Below, one piece after another: positions 41,727 through 59,756 of a stretch of DNA of 64,000 nucleotides. Position numbers and translations under genes: made by a program. Origin of the DNA: a virus; IMG/VR virus record IMGVR_UViG_3300005098_000017, positions 1 through 64,000 of that record; one strand, written 5' to 3'. The notes below the pieces were generated by a model. The model worked only from the letters and a program-made list of their open reading frames with translations, did no database searches and had not been told where the DNA came from. Position 1 is the first letter of the stretch. Each line of letters opens with the position of its first letter.

Positions 41727-43703
41727 CTACTTATTAGGCCGCCAGCCTGACGCTGTCTTGAATGCGTAGAACAAGCTCTTCGCCTCCTCTTTACTTATAC
41801 CGTTCTTTATCGCGATCTGCTCGATGACCAGATCCTCGTTAGCAGGAAGAGGAACGATATCAATCTCGGATGGATCCTTATCGTCTCTGAATCTGATGAA
41901 GCGCGGCGCCCTTAGTGCTTCCTTGCCAAGATCCATCGCGCGGACTTCGATGACTCTTCCTTTATATTTCTCAGGATGGAGCCACATGTCATCCCTTATT
42001 TCATCTGTGAAGCCGGAGCCGACCATCGCGACTACTTTACCCGTAGCATCAGCTGCTGCTACCTTCCCTGCGGAGTTAGATAATCTTCCTGTACCGGGCA
42101 GAATATCAACGATCTTCAGATCATAGGTATCGAATCTTTTTATCTTGTACCACTTATCCTCTCTTGGCAATCCGTTAGGATCCTTTATAACGATGCCTTC
42201 ACCCAGTGGCAGATCGTCATCGATCATATCGCGGAAGAAGTCGGCGGCCTTATCAGGATCACTGGACTTGAAGTGTATCATCTTTGGCACCGTGAACATC
42301 CTCTTGGTCGCGGCTTCAGGTATTTGGTATTTACCATAATAACTCTCATTAAGAAGCCCGACGATATCCTCGTATATGGTTCTTCTTTCCATGTATGAAG
42401 CCGGCGCTGGTATCAGTACTCCGTCCTCTGTAGCCCATCCGATCCAGTCGAATACCATTAGTCGGATTAAGCCGCGCTCCTTCTGTGCAAGGACGGCATT
42501 CTCGGGACTCGCGTTGAGCATCCCGCTGAGGACATTAGCTCCATCAGGATGCCACAGCTCACCCCGCAGGACCATCCCCACCGCTCGCTCCGGTAGCCAT
42601 AAGCCCGCGCTCATGTGAGGAACATTACCCTCTCTGTGGATCGGATATCCCTCAACGGAATACCTTCTACTTACTACAGTAAGAGTAACAGGCACTCCAT
42701 CAGGCAGATAACCCTCATATTTGAGGAAGGCGCGCTTCAGTGCGTTAATCGCGGCTCTATCTAAGACTGGTTTGACTATAGCTGGCTGGCTTACTTTGAA
42801 CGACGGACCGGGATCCTGACCTCTCTTGGCAGCGGTGAAGACCTTGAGGACCCCGCCGATGGTCCCCACCGCCCGCCCCGCTTCTTCCCGCGGGCTTACT
42901 ATGATTTGATCCTCCGCCTTAAGAACCTCATACTCTCCTGTCTCGAAGAACGGTGCGTTTATTCTTATTATGAAGTTGGCACCATCGACCTTCCGCTCTG
43001 CGATAAGCTCCTTACCTTCCTCGACTCTCTTGGTGACATCCTCCGCTGTTTCGAGGGCTTCATACACTCGCCTCGGGAACCATAATTCCGTAAATCCAGA
43101 ATGACGGATCGCGATATAATTTTTATCTGACACCTTGATGAACTCCCACCAGCCGGACCACGGCTGGTCTGTTCTATATGGTGTGAATACCTCAACAGAT
43201 TTCAGGTTGGATCTTACTACGCCCGGACTTTGGTATTCGATGGTCATTAAGCCGGCGCCGTATTGCCCTTCGGGGATTTCACCTTCGAAGTCCTCTGCTA
43301 GGATTTTATGATCCTGGGATCTTATCACATTTGTTTTCCATCCGCTTGGTTTCTTAGGATTATCGTCAGCATGAAGCGGCGGCTTCTTCTTGAACACGAA
43401 CGATATCAGTCTTTCGCTAGCACTTTTGAGGAGGCGCTGGCTCCGTGTCACAGGATATCTGAACCGGAAGTCCCAGTGAAGCCCCGCCGCCCGCGCCTCA
43501 TGCCTATGCACCGTTACCCTAGTAGGATATGGTTTCAGAGGTCGCAGCTCCATGTTCTTCTTATAGAGCGCCCGCTTAGTGGACCCTTTAATAACACGCT
43601 TTGCGGCTATCTGCGTATACGCTTTAATGAGACCGTTAGTAACAGCCTTATGCAGGAGAGCACCGGTTATCTTCGTACCAAGGGTTGCTGCTATGTGCCA
43701 CAT
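41727..43703 (-). CDS. ATP-dependent DNA ligase with N-terminal LigD-type 3'-phosphoesterase domain
   Basis: HRHEARAAGLHWDFRF, DH, FEGEIPEGQYGAG; ERKVDG, EGIVIK, WYKIK; OB domain VGSGF..PRFIRFRDDK. Confidence 0.92.
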   Translation of the reverse strand: MWHIAATLGTKITGALLHKAVTNGLIKAYTQIAAKRVIKGSTKRALYKKNMELRPLKPYPTRVTVHRHEARAAGLHWDFRFRYPVTRSQRLLKSASERLISFVFKKKPPLHADDNPKKPSGWKTNVIRSQDHKILAEDFEGEIPEGQYGAGLMTIEYQSPGVVRSNLKSVEVFTPYRTDQPWSGWWEFIKVSDKNYIAIRHSGFTELWFPRRVYEALETAEDVTKRVEEGKELIAERKVDGANFIIRINAPFFETGEYEVLKAEDQIIVSPREEAGRAVGTIGGVLKVFTAAKRGQDPGPSFKVSQPAIVKPVLDRAAINALKRAFLKYEGYLPDGVPVTLTVVSRRYSVEGYPIHREGNVPHMSAGLWLPERAVGMVLRGELWHPDGANVLSGMLNASPENAVLAQKERGLIRLMVFDWIGWATEDGVLIPAPASYMERRTIYEDIVGLLNESYYGKYQIPEAATKRMFTVPKMIHFKSSDPDKAADFFRDMIDDDLPLGEGIVIKDPNGLPREDKWYKIKRFDTYDLKIVDILPGTGRLSNSAGKVAAADATGKVVAMVGSGFTDEIRDDMWLHPEKYKGRVIEVRAMDLGKEALRAPRFIRFRDDKDPSEIDIVPLPANEDLVIEQIAIKNGISKEEAKSLFYAFKTASGWRPNK

Positions 43704-50412: not shown

Positions 50413-50479
50413 GGAGGCCTCTTAGACCCTCTATGAGGGAGCTCCAGCGCCACGTCAAGGCGGGCCTCCAGTGCTGGAG
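50413..50479 (-). ncRNA. HDV/CPEB3-like ribozyme fold, copy 1
   Basis: P1 CTCCAGC/GCTGGAG; P2 GGAGGCC; P3 GCC/GGC; L3 TTGACGT; P4; J4/2 TCTAA. Confidence 0.75.
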
Positions 50480-50577
50480 TAGCCCCCCGGTGCGGGGGCT
50501 TCATTTTTTTCACCTCCTTTCTAGCGGGATGAACTAGCCCGGCCATCTAGCCCATCCCGCGGTTTAAGGTTTAACCT

Positions 50578-52983
50578 TTAATCAAGTTTCCAGAAGTTGA
50601 GCCAGAATTCGCGATCGGCAGTAGCAAGAGGATGAAGACCAACAGGGGTTTTGATTCCAAGAATCCGCGCGAGCTGCCAGTTGCGCTTCTTACCAGTATG
50701 CAGTTCTACAAGAAAGCGTACATGTGCTTCAAGATCAGATTCAGTACCGGCAACAATAGCCAAGAAATCGCTCTCAGCGACAGTAAGAGATTTCCAAGTG
50801 GTAAGAATCGCCTGAGGTTCAAATCTAGCAAGAAGCCTGCGGAAACGCCTGTTTAGCCTCCGGAAGTTCCTAGTAAGAAGTACACGAAGTTCAGATACTT
50901 TACTCGCAAGGAAGCGCCGACGCCTGTCGAGCTCTCTGCGCCGCCTGCCAAGGGTAGCCAGAGCATCAGAAAGGTGATCAAGCCTAGGTAGCAGCCACTT
51001 TTCCATTTTTCGCCTCAGAACTTCGTTTCTGATCCCAGATGCTAGGAACCTGACTTTAGTTTCAGGTCTCGCATTAGCGAAGAGTCTACGGCTCCGATTA
51101 ACTACCGTATCAATCGCCGTTACTTTCTCTGCAAGAGCATTCACTTCATTCTCTATCTTCCGTATTCGAGAGAGCGTCCGTCCGAACATGCGCCTCCTTA
51201 TGCGATCCCACTTGAGGAACAATGCCTTAACTTCTGGATCAATGGTGCCATCAGGAATAAGATCCTTAAGAGACCTAACCTCTGGCTCAGCAAACTCAAC
51301 TTCAGGAATAAATTCAGCAAGAGGACCTGTTGGAGTTATTGCTACTGGATCCGCCTTCGCAGTCCTATTAGCGATCATTTGAGTAACAGTATCAAGCCTG
51401 GCAGTCGTACTCGCGAGTAGATGCAGTCCCGCTTCTACCTCATGACGAAGCTCCGGTTCTTTACCATTAGCAAGATTCACTGCAGCTTGGAGTAGCGCTC
51501 CAGTTCTCGCAACAAGATCCATATTAAGTTCAGTATCAGAAAGAAGCATTCGGGTAAAACCAGCATCAGCTCTCGCAATCATTTCCTTACCCAGCTCAAT
51601 ATTTTCCACTTCGGTACTAGGATCCATTCTCCACTCTCCGAAAGATATCTCCTTTATCCGGCTTCGTACGCTATCGAAGAATTCCTTAGCAACGAGAGGT
51701 TCCTTGAAGACCTTGGATGCCGCGGCGAGAGCCACTTTGTCGCCATCGGCATCCCATCCGCTAGGCATATCTGCAGGGTGTACCAGAATCGCATGCGCAC
51801 GATGGTCAACAATAATAGGAAGGATAAGAGTATCACCAGGCAAGATGGGCGACTTCTGTATGAGTAGGAGTTCTCCATCTTTCAGACCAAGCATCCGTGC
51901 AATCACAGGAGGAATAACAGCAGTGCCGGGATGTGCATTCTGAAATCCCAGATAGAAGCCCGGGCCTAGTCTCAACTTCCGAAGTGCAATCTTTAAGTGG
52001 TCCAGAAGCACTCTCCGCAGGAAGCCTGCCTCCTTTATGAGGCCGAATTTCCGCAGAATATCAGCAGTCAGAGTCAGCACTGCACTAGGTTCATTGATCG
52101 GATCAGCGTTTTTAACAAGGATATCAGCCGCTACCTCAGGATCAGAAAAACCATTAATAGCTTCAGCAATCTGCTCCTGAATCCGTTCAACAAACTCAGG
52201 CGCTGGATTAACATTCCATCCGAGTTTCCTTGGTAGAAGGAACCAGCGCGGCAGAGCTTGGCTGAGACTGATGCCGCCCGCGAATACGGCACCAACCTCA
52301 TGCAGCATGATGGTTCGCCCGAGTTCGAGTACGAAGCGCCGCCTCTTGATGAGTTTTGCGGTGTCAGCATCAGCAACGATATCAGTCCCTGTTTCCAGCT
52401 CCGTGAGGACCTCATCTGCAAGAGCTTCATTTCCAAGATACAACATCAGCCTCTGGAACCCAACTCTGCCGGGAAGAACTGGTACCGCTATCCCTTTCAG
52501 ACCAATAGCAGTCACTTTAAATCCATTCTTCACAAGAGCACGGGTAACCTTAGAAACCTCAGCCTCTGTAGGAGCATATGCTGCTGCCACAAGTTTTGTA
52601 AACCGTTCGCTAACGAAGAAGATCCCATCCACATTCATTTTCATATTGAGCTTGAGACCACGGATGCGAAGATCCATACCAGCCACACGTTCCGGCTTGA
52701 AATCCCAGCCTTTATTCGGAATTTCCGGCGTTGTCATCATCTGGATGCGCTTTCCAGGAAGAGATCTCAGATCAAATTCAGGATCACCGAGAATATTCGC
52801 AATCACTCTATTAACAGTCTCTATAGCAGAAGTAGGAACCACCTTGAAGATCCTACAATCTGGAATCATAGTAGGCTTCATTGGAAGATCAGAGTTCAGA
52901 TCAGGATCAAATGCGAAGAAGACACTAGCACCAGCTTCAGTAAATAACGCTTGCAGAGGAGACCTCGGTATTCTTTCCATCAT
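50578..52983 (-). CDS. single-subunit two-barrel RNA polymerase (YonO/cellular-RdRP-like)
   Basis: VDGIFFVS, GLKGIAV, QKSPIL and catalytic DADGD in the expected order; RBS AAGGAGGTGAT before the ATG at 52983. Confidence 0.75.
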   Translation of the reverse strand: MMERIPRSPLQALFTEAGASVFFAFDPDLNSDLPMKPTMIPDCRIFKVVPTSAIETVNRVIANILGDPEFDLRSLPGKRIQMMTTPEIPNKGWDFKPERVAGMDLRIRGLKLNMKMNVDGIFFVSERFTKLVAAAYAPTEAEVSKVTRALVKNGFKVTAIGLKGIAVPVLPGRVGFQRLMLYLGNEALADEVLTELETGTDIVADADTAKLIKRRRFVLELGRTIMLHEVGAVFAGGISLSQALPRWFLLPRKLGWNVNPAPEFVERIQEQIAEAINGFSDPEVAADILVKNADPINEPSAVLTLTADILRKFGLIKEAGFLRRVLLDHLKIALRKLRLGPGFYLGFQNAHPGTAVIPPVIARMLGLKDGELLLIQKSPILPGDTLILPIIVDHRAHAILVHPADMPSGWDADGDKVALAAASKVFKEPLVAKEFFDSVRSRIKEISFGEWRMDPSTEVENIELGKEMIARADAGFTRMLLSDTELNMDLVARTGALLQAAVNLANGKEPELRHEVEAGLHLLASTTARLDTVTQMIANRTAKADPVAITPTGPLAEFIPEVEFAEPEVRSLKDLIPDGTIDPEVKALFLKWDRIRRRMFGRTLSRIRKIENEVNALAEKVTAIDTVVNRSRRLFANARPETKVRFLASGIRNEVLRRKMEKWLLPRLDHLSDALATLGRRRRELDRRRRFLASKVSELRVLLTRNFRRLNRRFRRLLARFEPQAILTTWKSLTVAESDFLAIVAGTESDLEAHVRFLVELHTGKKRNWQLARILGIKTPVGLHPLATADREFWLNFWKLD

Positions 52984-52996
52984 ATCACCTCCTTTC

Positions 52997-53103
52997 CGCC
53001 GCGGATTTCGTTGCCCTCGGTGCGGCACTCCGAGGGTCGCCGGGCTTCGAGCGTCATTGGTGCCAAGGCTGGCCATAGAATGAAGCCCGGAAATTCTATG
53101 GCC
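52997..53103 (-). ncRNA. two tandem leader pseudoknots of the RNAP gene (53040-53103, 52997-53036)
   Basis: Loop CCGGGCTTC/GAAGCCCGG; loop TGCCGC/GCGGCG abutting the RBS. Confidence 0.6.
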
Positions 53104-53155
53104 ATGGCCGGGCGCCTTGACACCTCTGCTCTTTCGCGCATTTTATTTAACCTTA

Positions 53156-53596
53156 TTATCGATTAAATTCTCCATCCAATACAGCAAGCAGTAATCTTTG
53201 GAGTCTTCTTGGATCGGGTAAACCATATGCAATTCCATAGATTGGGGACCATGAATCCACATTCACCCTAACTGTTGTTCCCAAAATTTTGAATTCGAAA
53301 GCATAATCATCGATAGTATAGCTACCCTCCATTACCGATTGGAAAATGAGTGCGTCTACTAGATCCTCACAAGCCCACTCCGGATGTTGCTCAAGAATAA
53401 CTCTCTGGATCTCTAAAGTATCACACCAACCCACAATAACTCTACGTTCATCATCCATAACGTACCCCGACCGCAGATGCAAATTGTACCATTTCTCACC
53501 CACCTTGGCAGTTACCCAAGGCGGTGAGAAGTAGTAGTCGCCGACTTTAACTTTGTCGGCGATCCAGTCACCGATTACGTCCCACAACCATGACAT
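53156..53596 (-). CDS. hypothetical protein
   Basis: RBS AAGGAGGT. Confidence 0.7.
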   Translation of the reverse strand: MSWLWDVIGDWIADKVKVGDYYFSPPWVTAKVGEKWYNLHLRSGYVMDDERRVIVGWCDTLEIQRVILEQHPEWACEDLVDALIFQSVMEGSYTIDDYAFEFKILGTTVRVNVDSWSPIYGIAYGLPDPRRLQRLLLAVLDGEFNR

Positions 53597-53627
53597 TTTA
53601 CACCTCCTTTAGTTTGACTTTCTTCTC

Positions 53628-53699
53628 GAGGGACTCTTAGATCCCGCATAAGCGGGAAGCCCCGGCGCCACGACAAGGCGGTCCCTCAAAAAGCCGGGG
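53628..53699 (-). ncRNA. HDV/CPEB3-like ribozyme fold, copy 2
   Basis: P1 CCCCGGC/GCCGGGG; P2 GAGGGAC; P3 GCC/GGC; L3 TTGTCGT; J4/2 TCTAA. Confidence 0.75.
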
Positions 53700-54170
53700 T
53701 TAACTCAATTTGACATCATTATTATCCTTCTCTTTCTTTATCCACTCTATCAATTCATCCACTAGGCGCTCCACATTATAATCATCAATAATAAGAAGCG
53801 CCCTCCTGACCTTGTAGCCGAGCACCTCATGCGCTTTTAGCACATGCCTCGGCATCCAAGGCCAGGTCTCATTGTATCCCCCATTATATTTGATTTGGAG
53901 AAGGATTACCTCCTTCTTATGGGGGATACCAATGCTGACGTCGATTTTAAATACGACGTCAGCTTTACTCCCGACAGGATAGTCTATTAATTTCCATCCC
54001 GCCGGAAGCTTGGAGGATAGTTCTTCAATGAATCTATCCTCCGCTTCGAAGCCAGCTCTATGCGCCTCATGTGCGATAGAGCTAACCTCGAAATCCGGGC
54101 GGATTATTTCATGACATTCCGCCCAGAATTTTCGCGCTATAGTGCGGGCCTTCTCCATTTCATTTCTCAT
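53700..54170 (-). CDS. PD-(D/E)xK-family nuclease-like protein
   Basis: G..AE, ADVVF, LLQIK. Confidence 0.6.
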   Translation of the reverse strand: MRNEMEKARTIARKFWAECHEIIRPDFEVSSIAHEAHRAGFEAEDRFIEELSSKLPAGWKLIDYPVGSKADVVFKIDVSIGIPHKKEVILLQIKYNGGYNETWPWMPRHVLKAHEVLGYKVRRALLIIDDYNVERLVDELIEWIKKEKDNNDVKLS

Positions 54171-54233
54171 TTATTACTCCTCCATATGCATTCCGCCAAG
54201 GAAGTGACAAGTCCCCAAGGTCTTCTACCGTTG

Positions 54234-55070
54234 TCATAATATCACCTCCCTTACTTTGATAACAGGGTTAACCCAATCAACAAAATGATAGATTTTGTTT
54301 ATACGAGGGGGACAACCTTGGTCTCCCTTTATTTCGATATCATTATGATCAGCTATCCATACCTCATGAAACTGATTAAACAGTTTCTTAAATATAGGCG
54401 CCGCCTCCATCTCATATCCCGGCTTAACCTCTATATTATTCGCCAGAAGAACATTATCGTTACCGGTCACCGCTACCATAAGCGCACGAATCTTATTGTT
54501 TTCCACATCTTCCATCACATATGTGATGGCATCACCAAACGTCATGGTGTGCCATCCGTCATGGAAGATGTGTGCGCAGCAATGTACATGGAACCCTAAG
54601 AACGGAAATCTTGGATCTTTACGCGATAGTGGACGAAGTAACCAGCGTTCCGTTCTAATTACAGGTAAATCTGTTATGTCCACAGCCGGTAATGAGATCC
54701 ATTCCCGAAATAATTTCTGAATTTTACCACTATGAAGGTCTATTTTTGTATACCTTGGATGCCACCGCCAAAATTCTTTCCAAAATTCGCGGTGGCCATA
54801 TCGTCTAGCCCAAGATGTCACCAAGTTTTCCCTCGGTGACATCCTCTCATCGAGGCCTGTTTCATTAGCGGCCTCAATGAGATGGGGGCTTAGTGGCCCC
54901 CTAAACTTAAAGATATACCCTGCAAATTCTGGCCGCAAAAGTGGCGTTAGAAGCCACAAGGCATCGCGGCCGATTTTATTTAAATTATCACGGCCGTATG
55001 CCCTTATGGCTATCTCGATAAGAGGTTGCAATGTCTTATTCTTCATCAAGCCTTCCAAATATGCATTCAT
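54234..55070 (-). CDS. hypothetical protein
   Basis: 278-aa ORF with RBS. Confidence 0.75.
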   Translation of the reverse strand: MNAYLEGLMKNKTLQPLIEIAIRAYGRDNLNKIGRDALWLLTPLLRPEFAGYIFKFRGPLSPHLIEAANETGLDERMSPRENLVTSWARRYGHREFWKEFWRWHPRYTKIDLHSGKIQKLFREWISLPAVDITDLPVIRTERWLLRPLSRKDPRFPFLGFHVHCCAHIFHDGWHTMTFGDAITYVMEDVENNKIRALMVAVTGNDNVLLANNIEVKPGYEMEAAPIFKKLFNQFHEVWIADHNDIEIKGDQGCPPRINKIYHFVDWVNPVIKVREVIL

Positions 55071-55107
55071 TTTTACCTCCTTTATTTTTATACATATTCT
55101 CCATTTT

Positions 55108-55166
55108 TGCCCGCATTAGTTTACCAAGGGCACCATCTGACCTGCGGGCATTGATCAGATGGCGCC
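55108..55166 (-). ncRNA. leader H-type pseudoknot
   Basis: Loop TGCCCGCA pairs with TGCGGGCA. Confidence 0.65.
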
Positions 55167-55233
55167 TATATACAAAATGGGCACCGTATAGTCATGGTAA
55201 CAATACGGTGCCCTCACAACATCCCCTTTTATT

Positions 55234-55310
55234 AGGGTGCTCTTAGACCCTTAGGGATTGGACCTAAGGGAGCCCCTCCACCACGTCAAGGTGGCACCCT
55301 ATCGGAGGGG
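55234..55310 (-). ncRNA. HDV/CPEB3-like ribozyme fold, copy 3
   Basis: P1 CCCCTCC/GGAGGGG; P2 AGGGTGC; P3 ACC/GGT; L3 TTGACGT; J4/2 TCTAA. Confidence 0.75.
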
Positions 55311-55363
55311 TAGCGGGGTCTTGGACCCCGCTCTTGACTCTTGAGGCCGGCCGGTTTATTTTT

Positions 55364-55636
55364 TTAATATTTCCTGTAATCATGATACAAATGGATTATA
55401 CTTTCATACCTGCCAAATATTTTGACAGGCATAGCATGCAAATCTGTTACTTTCATGCCTTCATAGAAGAATTGACCTTCTCCAAAATACTTATGGAGAA
55501 GGTCTGTTTCCTTTATAGGATGATCTAGCAAGAACAAAACTCCTTCTTTTATAAACCCAATCACCGGCATGATAAACCTCCTCGCCGCACCTTGGTTCAA
55601 CTCCCAGTATGCATACGGTGCGGCACTTATATGCAT
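55364..55636 (-). CDS. hypothetical protein
   Basis: ORF between two ribozyme-like elements; weak RBS. Confidence 0.5.
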   Translation of the reverse strand: MHISAAPYAYWELNQGAARRFIMPVIGFIKEGVLFLLDHPIKETDLLHKYFGEGQFFYEGMKVTDLHAMPVKIFGRYESIIHLYHDYRKY

Positions 55637-55659
55637 ACTGGGATACCGGCCGGCCTTAT

Positions 55660-55734
55660 GGACACTCTTAGACCCTTAGGGATTGGACCTAAGGGAGCCC
55701 TCCAGCCACGTCAAGGCGGTGTCCTTCTGGAGGG
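55660..55734 (-). ncRNA. HDV/CPEB3-like ribozyme fold, copy 4
   Basis: P1 CCCTCCA/TGGAGGG; P2 GGACAC; P3 GCC/GGC; L3 TTGACGT; J4/2 TCTAA. Confidence 0.75.
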
Positions 55735-55786
55735 TAGCAAGGCCATCATGTGAGACCTTGCTTTGGCTTGGGCGGCAAATCCTTCC

Positions 55787-55993
55787 TTAAAATTCGTAAT
55801 ACCAGACTTTTTTTCCAATTCTTTCAATATATTTGGCAAGTTTCCTTACTTTTCTAGTAGGTCTACCACCTGTGTAAGCCATACCTGATACCAAAGGCCT
55901 AAGAAGACTGACTCTGCCATCTGGAAATAATTCCCCAACAAACCTGATCAAATCCTTGCCTATCCAGAGATCAACTATAACTGTCCTTGTCAT
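55787..55993 (-). CDS. hypothetical protein
   Basis: RBS AAGGAGG. Confidence 0.65.
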   Translation of the reverse strand: MTRTVIVDLWIGKDLIRFVGELFPDGRVSLLRPLVSGMAYTGGRPTRKVRKLAKYIERIGKKVWYYEF

Positions 55994-56006
55994 TTTTTCC
56001 TCCTTT

Positions 56007-56066
56007 CGCCGCGGTCAGTTTTAACCACCAGTGGGCCCACACCGCGGCATTTATGGTACCCACTGG
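56007..56066 (-). ncRNA. leader H-type pseudoknot
   Basis: Loop AAATGCCGCGGT pairs with ACCGCGGCG abutting the RBS. Confidence 0.7.
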
Positions 56067-56083
56067 CTTGCCGCCCAAGCCAT

Positions 56084-56154
56084 CGGACGCTCTTAGACCT
56101 AGCCACAAGGCTAGGAGCCCCTCCACCACGTCAAGGTGGCGTCCGTCGGAGGGG
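56084..56154 (-). ncRNA. HDV/CPEB3-like ribozyme fold, copy 5
   Basis: P1 CCCCTCC/GGAGGGG; P2 CGGACGC; P3 ACC/GGT; L3 TTGACGT; J4/2 TCTAA. Confidence 0.75.
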
Positions 56155-56207
56155 TAGCAAGACCCCAAGGGGCCTTGCCTCGTCTACGGGGGCGCCAATA
56201 GACCGTA

Positions 56208-58136: not shown

Positions 58137-58528
58137 TTTATCTCCTTATTATTTTTATCGTTGAAATATGTTTTTCTAAATTCCTCTAGGATAGGTTCAT
58201 CACCTGTACCATAGAGGACGGCGTGCATCCATTCAGTTACCTGATCTGCTGTATGGTGTGGAAATACATCCTTCATGCATCCGAAGTATTTTTGCCAGTT
58301 GGTTGGTTTAGGTTTTTTATGTTCTTTTATAGTCCATTTTTTGGTAGCTGTGGCGGATCCGTAGGTTGTGAGGATGAGGCCTATAATTATTATTATTATG
58401 GTGTATGTAGTGGGATTATTGGTGTAGTGGTGGAGGAGGAAGCCGGCCGCAGTGGTAAGTAGGCCCCAGAATCGTTTGCTCCTCCAGAAGGGTTTGGTGT
58501 TATTATTGTTATTATCGTGTGTGTTCAT
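58133..58528 (-). CDS. membrane protein, possibly holin-like
   Basis: KPFWRSKRFWG followed by two TM segments. Confidence 0.55.
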   Translation of the reverse strand: MNTHDNNNNNTKPFWRSKRFWGLLTTAAGFLLHHYTNNPTTYTIIIIIIGLILTTYGSATATKKWTIKEHKKPKPTNWQKYFGCMKDVFPHHTADQVTEWMHAVLYGTGDEPILEEFRKTYFNDKNNKEIK

Positions 58529-59756
58529 TTTGGGTCTCCTTTATGTTATGAAGCCCGCGCTTCAGTATATTAATACTTGCATTATAATCTCTATCGAGGG
58601 TTGCACCACAGAACGGGCATTTATGTATACGATCGTGGAGTGCCTTAGGTACCTTATGTCCACATGAGGAGCATGTCTGCGTAGTATATGCTGGGTTAAC
58701 CTTGATGACTTGTGAGCCGTGAAGCCGCGCCTTGTAGGATGTTAGATTGATAAGTGTGTTCCATCCTGCGTCGTAGATGTATTTAGAGAGGTGAAGCCGG
58801 CGGCGCTTGCTTACAAGATCATGTATTTTTATATCCTCGAATATAATAACATCATAGTTAGTAGCGAGCTGATGTGAGATATGATGGAGGAAGCCGCGCC
58901 GCATGTTAGCTAATCGTTCATGAAGTCTGGCTAGTTTACGCCTCTGTTTCATATAATTAGCACTCCCTCGCTGCTTGCGCGAGAGCTGTTTTTGTACACG
59001 CTTTATACGTTTTTCGAGTTTGGAGATGAAGCGCGGGTTAGATACAATATTACCATCACTTGATACGATGAGATTCGTAAGCCCGAGATCTATACCGATG
59101 ACGCGCTGCTTACTATTAATATCGGTAACGATAGTAGTGTCATTATTATTGGGTACTTCAACTGTTACATATGCATACCATCTACCACTGGGATGTCTCT
59201 TTATAGTAACATTTTTGGCTTTAGTCCATTCGATAGGTCGGTGAAGGCGGATTTTTAAGCCGCCGAGTTTGGGTAAATGAATATATGCGAACTTATCATT
59301 CAGTTTCTCAAATTTAATGACAGGATACCCATCCGGATAGTTTTTATGAGTCATCCAAACTTGTGGATATGTAAGTGATAAGTATTGATCAGGGTTTTTG
59401 GGTTTAGGCGGACTTATATGTCCTTCTTTATTCCTGATGGCTACAAAGAAACGCTTATATGCCCAGTCAATCTTATCAATTATAGCCTTTAAGACACCTG
59501 AATAAACGAGCCTTAAGGCAGGTTCCTCTCTTTTAAATGCGGTTAGGTTACGTTGCCTCTCAAATTTTGTAGGGGTTCTATGTTCTTCATCCCATATACG
59601 TCTGTATTCATTTATTTCGTAATTATAGAACCAGCAGAGGATGGACAGCCAGTTTTCTAGTTTATATTCCTGTAGTGTTGTTGGATAGGCTCTGAATTTG
59701 TAGGTGAGGTAGGAAGCCGCCGCCTTATCAGTATTTTTTGATCCTTGTTTATTCAT
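58512..59756 (-). CDS. tnpB: TnpB (IS200/IS605-family RNA-guided nuclease), solo
   Basis: YKFRAYPT N-terminus; RuvC IGIDLG / FED / DRDYNA; Zn finger CSSC..CPFC; no tnpA in the window. Confidence 0.95.
   Translation of the reverse strand: MNKQGSKNTDKAAASYLTYKFRAYPTTLQEYKLENWLSILCWFYNYEINEYRRIWDEEHRTPTKFERQRNLTAFKREEPALRLVYSGVLKAIIDKIDWAYKRFFVAIRNKEGHISPPKPKNPDQYLSLTYPQVWMTHKNYPDGYPVIKFEKLNDKFAYIHLPKLGGLKIRLHRPIEWTKAKNVTIKRHPSGRWYAYVTVEVPNNNDTTIVTDINSKQRVIGIDLGLTNLIVSSDGNIVSNPRFISKLEKRIKRVQKQLSRKQRGSANYMKQRRKLARLHERLANMRRGFLHHISHQLATNYDVIIFEDIKIHDLVSKRRRLHLSKYIYDAGWNTLINLTSYKARLHGSQVIKVNPAYTTQTCSSCGHKVPKALHDRIHKCPFCGATLDRDYNASINILKRGLHNIKETQNEHTR

Follow-up and report, generated by a model that had tools for sequence, protein, structure and literature searches.

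What are the five short, repeated RNA folds that stand between the genes of a long phage operon, and what might they do to its message? The question is raised by a 64,000-nt stretch of DNA (hereafter the window; positions 1 to 64,000 of IMG/VR record IMGVR_UViG_3300005098_000017), in which five minus-strand elements, rz1 to rz5, lie within positions 50413-56155. An initial annotation, made from the sequence without database searches, had described them as ribozyme folds of the hepatitis delta virus (HDV) and CPEB3 type with a flipped core. We found that the strands of all five are ordered as in the HDV nested double pseudoknot, that their helices covary, that residues of the catalytic core are conserved and that every copy is intergenic; from these features we infer cleavage itself, together with an effect on the stability and translation of the products. 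Therefore, rz1-rz5 are probably active self-cleaving HDV-like ribozymes that split a polycistronic transcript. The elements represent a variant within a known class of ribozymes, and their arrangement is one already known from hammerheads, which form another class.

Anatomy and placement of the five elements

The source is an IMG/VR virus contig of an uncultured phage, 147,433 bp long, with 40% G+C and an estimated completeness of 84%. Between about 61 kb and 6.5 kb (window positions, as throughout), every gene is oriented for leftward transcription, and rz1-rz5 lie on the same strand in the gaps between open reading frames (ORFs). Read in this direction, a 94-aa ORF is followed by rz1, a 68-aa ORF by rz2, another 68-aa ORF by rz3, ORFs of 278 and 156 aa by rz4, and ORFs of 146 and 801 aa by rz5, with ordinary Shine-Dalgarno (SD) sequences 40-160 nt downstream of the ribozymes. 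Promoter-like and terminator-like sites within 48.5-58.6 kb were not above background. A script scan together with a covariance-model (CM) search returned only five copies in the whole record, all on one strand (E 6e-8 to 2e-15), at exactly the places and cut positions that the initial annotation had given, and the CM search found no antisense ribozymes in the record.

In each copy the strands follow the order P1-P2-P3-L3-P3'-P1'-CU-P4-CUAAGA-P2' (P, paired helix; L, loop; J, joining segment), which is that of the HDV nested double pseudoknot. The elements span 67-78 nt, and in all five the base at -1 is A and the base at +1 is C. Every copy combines a 7-bp P1, a short J1/2, a P2 of 6-8 bp plus an invariant C, and a 3-bp P3 (ACC or GCC) with a 7-nt L3 that reads TTGACGT in the DNA, or TTGTCGT in rz4; these are followed by P3', P1', CT, a P4 hairpin of 13-23 nt, TCTAAGA and P2'. 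Minimum free energy (MFE) folds yield either P1 and P4 or P2, P3 and P4. The five copies, all minus strand and with the second position of each cut being the +1 C, are rz1 (56084-56155; predicted cut A56155/C56154; presumed catalytic C 56096; 74 bits and E 8e-15 with CM R1), rz2 (55660-55735; predicted cut 55735/55734; presumed catalytic C 55671; CM score 74.5 bits), rz3 (55233-55311; predicted cut 55311/55310; presumed catalytic C 55246; 71.3 bits), rz4 (53628-53700; predicted cut 53700/53699; presumed catalytic C 53640; 42.3 bits) and rz5, downstream of the 801-aa ORF (50413-50480; predicted cut 50480/50479; presumed catalytic C 50425; 50.8 bits).

The predicted cut of rz4 directly follows the last base of a TAA stop codon (53700-53702) that ends the ORF at 54170-53700, and this abutment is kept in three of four lineages (also L005:3894-3896 and L006:9734-9736). 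In MFE folds, each of the other four copies, rz1, rz2, rz3 and rz5, has an upstream hairpin whose end lies one base ahead of the predicted cut; the initial annotation had noticed these hairpins.

Covariation and further members of the subfamily

The 801-aa ORF has three homologue clusters with 80-93% protein identity, and their contigs hold ribozymes at matching sites. Compensatory changes mark these orthologs: GCC/GGC in P3 becomes ACC/GGT (the rz5 ortholog in L010), P2 changes by way of G-U intermediates and, in one case, by a paired deletion that shortens both strands, and P4 is replaced wholesale. The gene content between ribozymes also varies among close relatives. For example, L005:2781-2857 is a chimeric ribozyme: its P1 and 5' P2 strand match the rz3 type, its 3' P2 strand and downstream arm match the rz2 type, and P2 is retained through three G-U pairs; together with the varying gene content, this fits recombination at conserved ribozyme cores. 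No match to the 6-kb region was found by BLASTN against a phage collection, and no related locus sought in IMG/VR with the 801-aa protein was confirmed.

A scan with a pattern composed of the invariant letters only revealed 110 loci in metagenome contigs and 18 in prokaryote genome contigs, with 105 unique matches. A perfect 7-bp P1 partner was present in 40 of the 105, and among those 40 the P3 closing pair was Watson-Crick in 38 (23 A-U and 15 G-C), at least five contiguous P2 pairs directly followed CUAAGA in 34, and the +1 base was C in 37. None of the 18 loci in prokaryote genome contigs was compatible with the fold. These pairing counts among unrelated matches exclude a chance origin of the predicted elements. 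A control with shuffled P1' strands gave 12.8 expected against 40 observed and was uninformative, in that a G-rich P1' still pairs with a C-rich P1.

In 13 diverse members, which had been pre-selected for pairing, 240 of 240 cells of P1, P2, P3 and P1.1 were paired and 13 of 19 pairs had changed on both sides, as compared to 37-47% pairing in slid controls. Because of that selection, we repeated the count on 59 distinct sequences, aligned with a model that lacks P2 and with rows of long J1/2 misaligned: P1 was paired in 96.8% of cells, P3 in 99.4% and the five central P2 pairs in 76%, against 39-51% in slid controls. Double changes were found at every P1, P3 and central P2 pair. P2 is therefore supported despite its absence from the alignment model, and with it the non-nested order of P1 and P2. 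Indeed, ortholog and metagenome pair counts alike bear out the double pseudoknot and the helix covariation that the initial annotation had read from the five copies.

The residues that do not vary lie at the places of the HDV active site, namely U and G in L3 and the J4/2 C with the following AA; a C-G pair at the base of P2 is likewise invariant. All members have U as base 1 and G as base 6 of L3, positions that were partly fixed by the search pattern. In HDV numbering these are U20 and G25, which form a reverse wobble at the active site. At the level of sequence conservation, all five phage copies carry CUAAGA, with the cytosine at the first position of J4/2 and adenosines after it, and copies that were found by the model independently of the pattern retain this cytosine while its neighbour varies (UCCAAGA at L059:7303-7373, ACCAAGA in L088). 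When a control pattern with the J4/2 C replaced by A, G or T was scanned, the motif was not followed by P2' (0-2 pairs) in any P1-compatible match; the control is confounded by P4-less ribozymes caught through a fortuitous downstream TAAGA, and by eye most of its matches indeed carry CUAA a few bases after J1/4 and then a P2 complement.

A dedicated scan of IMG/VR for this minimal form gave 69 unique matches, of which 58 have a perfect P1. Among these 58, the +1 base was C in 54, and the P3 closing pair was Watson-Crick in all 58 although no filter had been set on that pair. Search with the flipped-core pattern and the CM, the check that the initial annotation had put forward, has thus added to the exactly five copies in the record some 40 unrelated metagenomic members and about 60 P4-less forms in IMG/VR. 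The flipped core marks a sizeable virus-borne subfamily of predicted ribozymes, with full-length and minimal versions.

Several observations on these collections may be added. The roughly 60 P4-less folds (L155-L305; for example L189:3269-3298 and L234:1562-1591) have a C+1/UUGACGU/CU core and a UUNAA linker that replaces P4, and many of them come from one series of samples, in phage contigs 75-175 kb long. In the viral contig L059, identical to L150, a 169-aa ORF is flanked by two hairpin-plus-ribozyme units whose elements have 77-80% G+C, and given this very different composition the hairpin-ribozyme unit is not peculiar to the present phage. A subgroup of metagenome contigs (L013, L030, L035, L056, L087 and L091) has the P1/P3/L3/CU core followed by a conserved unpaired stretch and CCUAAGAG, with no adjacent P2'; its P2 partner may be further downstream, and these contigs, which have few long ORFs, may be eukaryotic. 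Four host-associated metagenome members for which a retrotransposon origin was suspected (L020, L052, L056 and L087) gave no Pfam matches or long ORFs.

Known relatives and the case for cleavage

CPEB3 and the elements described here have 7-nt L3 sequences one base apart, a J1/4 of 2 nt whose last base is U, a P3 of 3 bp and the same overall size. In the phage elements, however, the G1-U wobble of CPEB3 is reversed and so, putatively, is its C-G P1.1, and no Rfam CPEB3 match was obtained. Across families the P1.1 pair is found as C-G, U-A, A-U and G-C. Active HDV ribozymes have been solved with a P1.1 of U:A plus U:U, or of U:A plus C:U (PMC13635239).

The closest counterpart of the flipped features is the L1Tc/ingi ribozyme of trypanosomatid retrotransposons, which has a +1 C paired to G, an L3 of UCAACGU and a J1/4 of UC, and whose G-C orientation in P1 differs from that of R2 and HDV (PMC3185411, PMC4035085). 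On our parse of the published sequences, the P1.1 pair of L1Tc would likewise have its purine in L3. The two groups have in common the +1 C-G pair, with the G-C orientation in P1 reversed relative to HDV, P3 ACC/GGT, an L3 ending in ACGU, a putative purine-in-L3 P1.1 and a J4/2 of CUAAG. They differ in that the L1Tc P1.1 would be a single A-U, whereas UUGACGU/CU would give G-C plus U-U, with core letters that differ at three positions (UCA/UC versus UUG/CU), and in that L1Tc ribozymes lie at the 5' end of a eukaryotic non-LTR retrotransposon, in its Pr77 hallmark, whereas those described here are intergenic in a phage. The C-G pair at +1 and the letters of a putative inverted P1.1 are present as the initial annotation had described them, but the novelty it claimed for them was overstated, given the +1 C-G pair and, as parsed, the purine-in-L3 P1.1 of L1Tc/ingi.

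Phage-borne relatives are also known from Caudoviricetes, namely theta ribozymes and other minimal forms of the HDV-like class (Kienbeck et al. 2024, PMC10879173). They share with the present elements P3 ACC/GCC...GGT/GGC, a 7-bp P1, a J4/2 CUAA followed by P2' and an L3 of 7 nt in the pattern U-NN-NCGU. Among the tabulated sequences compared, the first base of theta ribozymes is G, their L3 is U-CC/TC/GC with a J1/4 of GG/GA/GC, most have no P4, and they adjoin tRNAs (PMC10879173). In contrast, rz1-rz5 have C at +1, L3 UUG, J1/4 CU and a full P4 rather than the minimal form, and the 64-kb window holds no tRNA gene, in agreement with the initial annotation, which had set the elements apart from theta ribozymes on this ground. 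TTGACGT has no occurrence in the 1.4 million characters of the supplements to PMC10879173. A literature search that included a text search for the core motif, with incomplete coverage of the key papers, returned no paper describing a C+1/UUG/CU phage subfamily.

The arrangement itself has a precedent in prophages, where clusters of hammerheads flank single genes or short blocks of variable identity and cut polycistronic RNAs of about 2 kb in vitro (Perreault et al. 2011, PMC3088659). Those hammerheads belong to another ribozyme class, and PMC3088659 describes neither an upstream hairpin module nor end-paired cassettes.

Several points weigh against active cleavage by rz1-rz5. The G1-U37 wobble is absent, the +1 pair being C-G in all five copies; in HDV and CPEB3 this wobble is a Mg2+ site, and the G1A change strongly lowers CPEB3 activity (PMC8233481). 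In genomic HDV, cleavage is reported to be slower with A as the leader base at -1 (PMC1874588). No family in Rfam was matched at gathering thresholds, including the HDV-family models (RF00094, RF00622, RF02682 and the drz families), and a search of the 6.6-kb region at E up to 10 gave no HDV-family match and only chance-level Rfam matches. A 101-nt slice with rz1 reached 11.1 bits (E 4.9) with RF02682, as compared to a gathering score of 44. In P1.1, the G at L3 position 3 and the C at J1/4 position 1 can pair (plus U-U), yet since both positions are invariant (59 of 59) this putative pair gains no covariation support within the family. RNAalifold suggests an alternative, nested register for P3. 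Finally, whether a 5'-OH would stabilize or destabilize an mRNA depends on host RNases.

Some of these points have an answer. The G1-U37 wobble is typical of the HDV-like class rather than defining for it, because active L1Tc ribozymes also lack it; their self-cleavage at +1 in vitro is Mg-dependent and leaves a 5'-OH (PMC3185411). That ribozymes of this type with a +1 C cleave in vitro supports the reading of rz1-rz5 as active. The missing wobble and the A at -1 could nevertheless make them slow or conditional. The HDV register of P3 is favored because only this register explains the A-U/G-C covariation of the closing pair (19-31). As for Rfam, RF02682, from Faecalibacterium prausnitzii, is the only HDV-family model that aligns, and it does so end to end from the predicted +1, with P3 and L3 in register and its GCUAAGA opposite UCUAAGA here; its own P1 starts with G.

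The elements might instead be structural RNAs that do not cleave, serving as nuclease-resistant caps or protein-binding sites after the reversed cleavage-site pair had abolished catalysis. Such a role would fit the failure of all Rfam ribozyme models to reach threshold and the missing G-U wobble, at which the catalytic metal binds in HDV and CPEB3. However, even very divergent members keep the J4/2 C, the AA and, in L3, the U and G, although their helices vary freely; this pattern is hard to account for without catalysis, and the L1Tc ribozyme is active with its +1 C. We consider the structural account improbable. It is also unlikely that they act mainly as regulated or translational devices, either as platforms at mRNA 5' ends, resembling an internal ribosome entry site (IRES) or a standby site, or through folding gated by upstream ribosomes. 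Such coupling would be consistent with the stop codon that immediately precedes rz4 in three of four lineages, with a conserved SD-ATG 24-25 nt before the rz5 cut and with the ability of the 5' strand of rz5 P1 to pair alternatively with the start of P2, and IRES-like roles of HDV-like ribozymes have been discussed (PMC6765202) and proposed for R2 and L1Tc. However, rz1-rz3 have no coupling of this kind, being insulated from the upstream ORF by their hairpins, and the SD sequences downstream of the ribozymes are ordinary ones.

Two further accounts take the cassettes between ribozymes as their starting point. Doubly cut cassettes, whose 5'-OH and 2',3'-cyclic phosphate would be brought together by a terminal duplex, could be joined into RNA circles by a host RtcB-type ligase, copied by the adjacent RNA-dependent RNA polymerase (RdRP)-like two-barrel polymerase, or both, and a DNA phage would then put selected genes through an HDV-like cycle of RNA circles or amplification. 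In favor of this, cassettes 1 and 2 each have a terminal duplex (12-14 bp) that covaries in relatives, the 801-aa protein nearby bears a resemblance to RdRP-family clusters, and the idea of circular products has been raised for clustered phage ribozymes, with no such product detected (PMC3088659). Against this, ligation would rebuild an intact cleavage site and lead to recutting, only two of four cassettes have paired ends, the record lacks antisense ribozymes, and it encodes neither an RtcB nor a kinase resembling polynucleotide kinase (AAA_33); circles or replicating RNAs are thus very unlikely. That the elements are primarily DNA-level recombination sites for cassette shuffling, with the RNA fold secondary, we regard as hardly credible: gene content between ribozymes does differ among close relatives, and L005:2781-2857 is chimeric, but compensatory changes in three helices and conservation across unrelated contigs that lack DNA similarity outside the core point to selection on RNA, and recombination is better seen as a by-product.

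If rz1-rz5 do cleave, the nested double pseudoknot would form in each element as the leftward polycistronic transcript emerges, and the J4/2 cytosine would promote scission between the A at -1 and the C at +1. Upstream fragments would then end in a stable hairpin and an A with a 2',3'-cyclic phosphate, or, in the case of rz4, exactly at the UAA stop, and in downstream fragments the initial 5'-OH would lie hidden within the compact ribozyme, ahead of a structured leader, an SD sequence and an ORF. In this way co-transcriptional cleavage could convert one long message into five or six mRNAs of one or two genes each, with both ends structurally protected and poor substrates for exonucleases, so that the stability and translation of individual mRNAs would be uncoupled with no need for a host RNase. 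In two cassettes a duplex of 12-14 bp would additionally join both ends. The self-processing of a polycistronic transcript proposed in the initial annotation thereby stands as a prediction with comparative evidence behind it, whereas the description of that transcript as early went beyond the data.

Should this prove correct, the phage would make discrete mRNAs with built-in protected ends, independently of host RNase, and a job documented earlier for clustered hammerheads would here be done by an HDV-like ribozyme. Current counts probably underestimate the HDV-like ribozymes of viruses, because the subfamily occurs in dozens of viral and metagenomic contigs, falls below Rfam thresholds on the copies tested and has a core, TTGACGT, that is absent from the theta tables. 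Its members would also offer natural test cases for two debated points in HDV, namely the weight of the G-U wobble at the cleavage site and the orientation of P1.1, and the hairpin-ribozyme unit, which is compact and modular, could serve as an insulator part in synthetic operons.

Hairpins, cassette ends, leaders and neighbouring genes

The hairpins that precede four of the predicted cuts are all on the minus strand and lie at 56156-56179 (rz1), 55736-55762 (rz2), 55312-55332 (rz3) and 50481-50500 (rz5). The rz1 stem covaries among orthologs and between copies, with its AGC/GCU base kept and its interior different, and orthologs of the rz2 hairpin in L005, L010, L114 and L115 have other loops and stem changes; the rz3 hairpin is drawn from its MFE fold and ortholog comparison. 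The hairpin probably keeps upstream sequence from disturbing the ribozyme fold.

The rz5 hairpin overlaps a conserved SD-ATG start at 50546. A strong SD sequence with an ATG 25 nt before the rz5 cut opens a 72-aa frame that runs through the ribozyme (50546-50328, minus strand). In L010 the SD-ATG is kept with a spacing of 24 nt, so another frame runs through the ribozyme there, and because of this change the long 72-aa frame is probably non-coding. The conserved SD-ATG may instead belong to a mini-ORF that ends at the cut.

Two single-gene cassettes, between rz1 and rz2 and between rz2 and rz3, have ends that can pair, and in both the arms are 289 nt apart. In cassette 1 a 14-nt arm just 3' of rz1 (56068-56081, minus strand) is the perfect complement of one just 5' of the rz2 hairpin (55765-55778, minus strand), with an RNAduplex energy of -40.7 kcal/mol. 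Similarly, in cassette 2 a 12-nt arm just 3' of rz2 (55645-55656, minus strand) is the perfect complement of one upstream of the rz3 hairpin (55344-55355, minus strand). In L005 and L014 the distal half of the terminal duplex is changed on both strands and encloses another inner gene, which argues that the pairing of cassette ends is selected and that the cassettes are exchangeable.

Four leaders downstream of ribozymes (56066-56008, 55642-55584, 55166-55109 and 53103-53042, minus strand) contain interleaved complements in the order S1-S2-S1'-S2' and thus have the potential to form H-type pseudoknots, with stems of 6-13 bp that are perfect save one G-U in the third leader. Three of the four lie just upstream of an SD site, and in the third (55166-55109) about 25 nt separate the end of the last arm from the SD sequence. 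The leaders have the same topology and different sequences, with no Rfam match.

The 801-aa ORF between rz4 and rz5 (50578-52983, minus strand) has no Pfam, PHROG or PDB sequence match. Its nearest ESM-Atlas clusters carry PF05183 (RdRP) in 11-31% of their members, with a score of 0.95, and the RdRP-like label of this protein is to be taken as a language-model lead only, a limit that applies equally to the "RNAP region" label that the initial annotation had given to the locus. Further upstream, at 58512-59756 (minus strand), is a TnpB/Cas12f-like protein with OrfB_IS605 and TNB domains (E about 1e-24) and no obvious tnpA; the gene is kept in relatives L006 and L010. A 658-aa ATP-dependent ligase at 41727-43703 (minus strand) has a weak N-terminal match to the LigD 3'-phosphoesterase, an end-healing domain that is of note given the cyclic-phosphate ends predicted for the ribozyme cuts.

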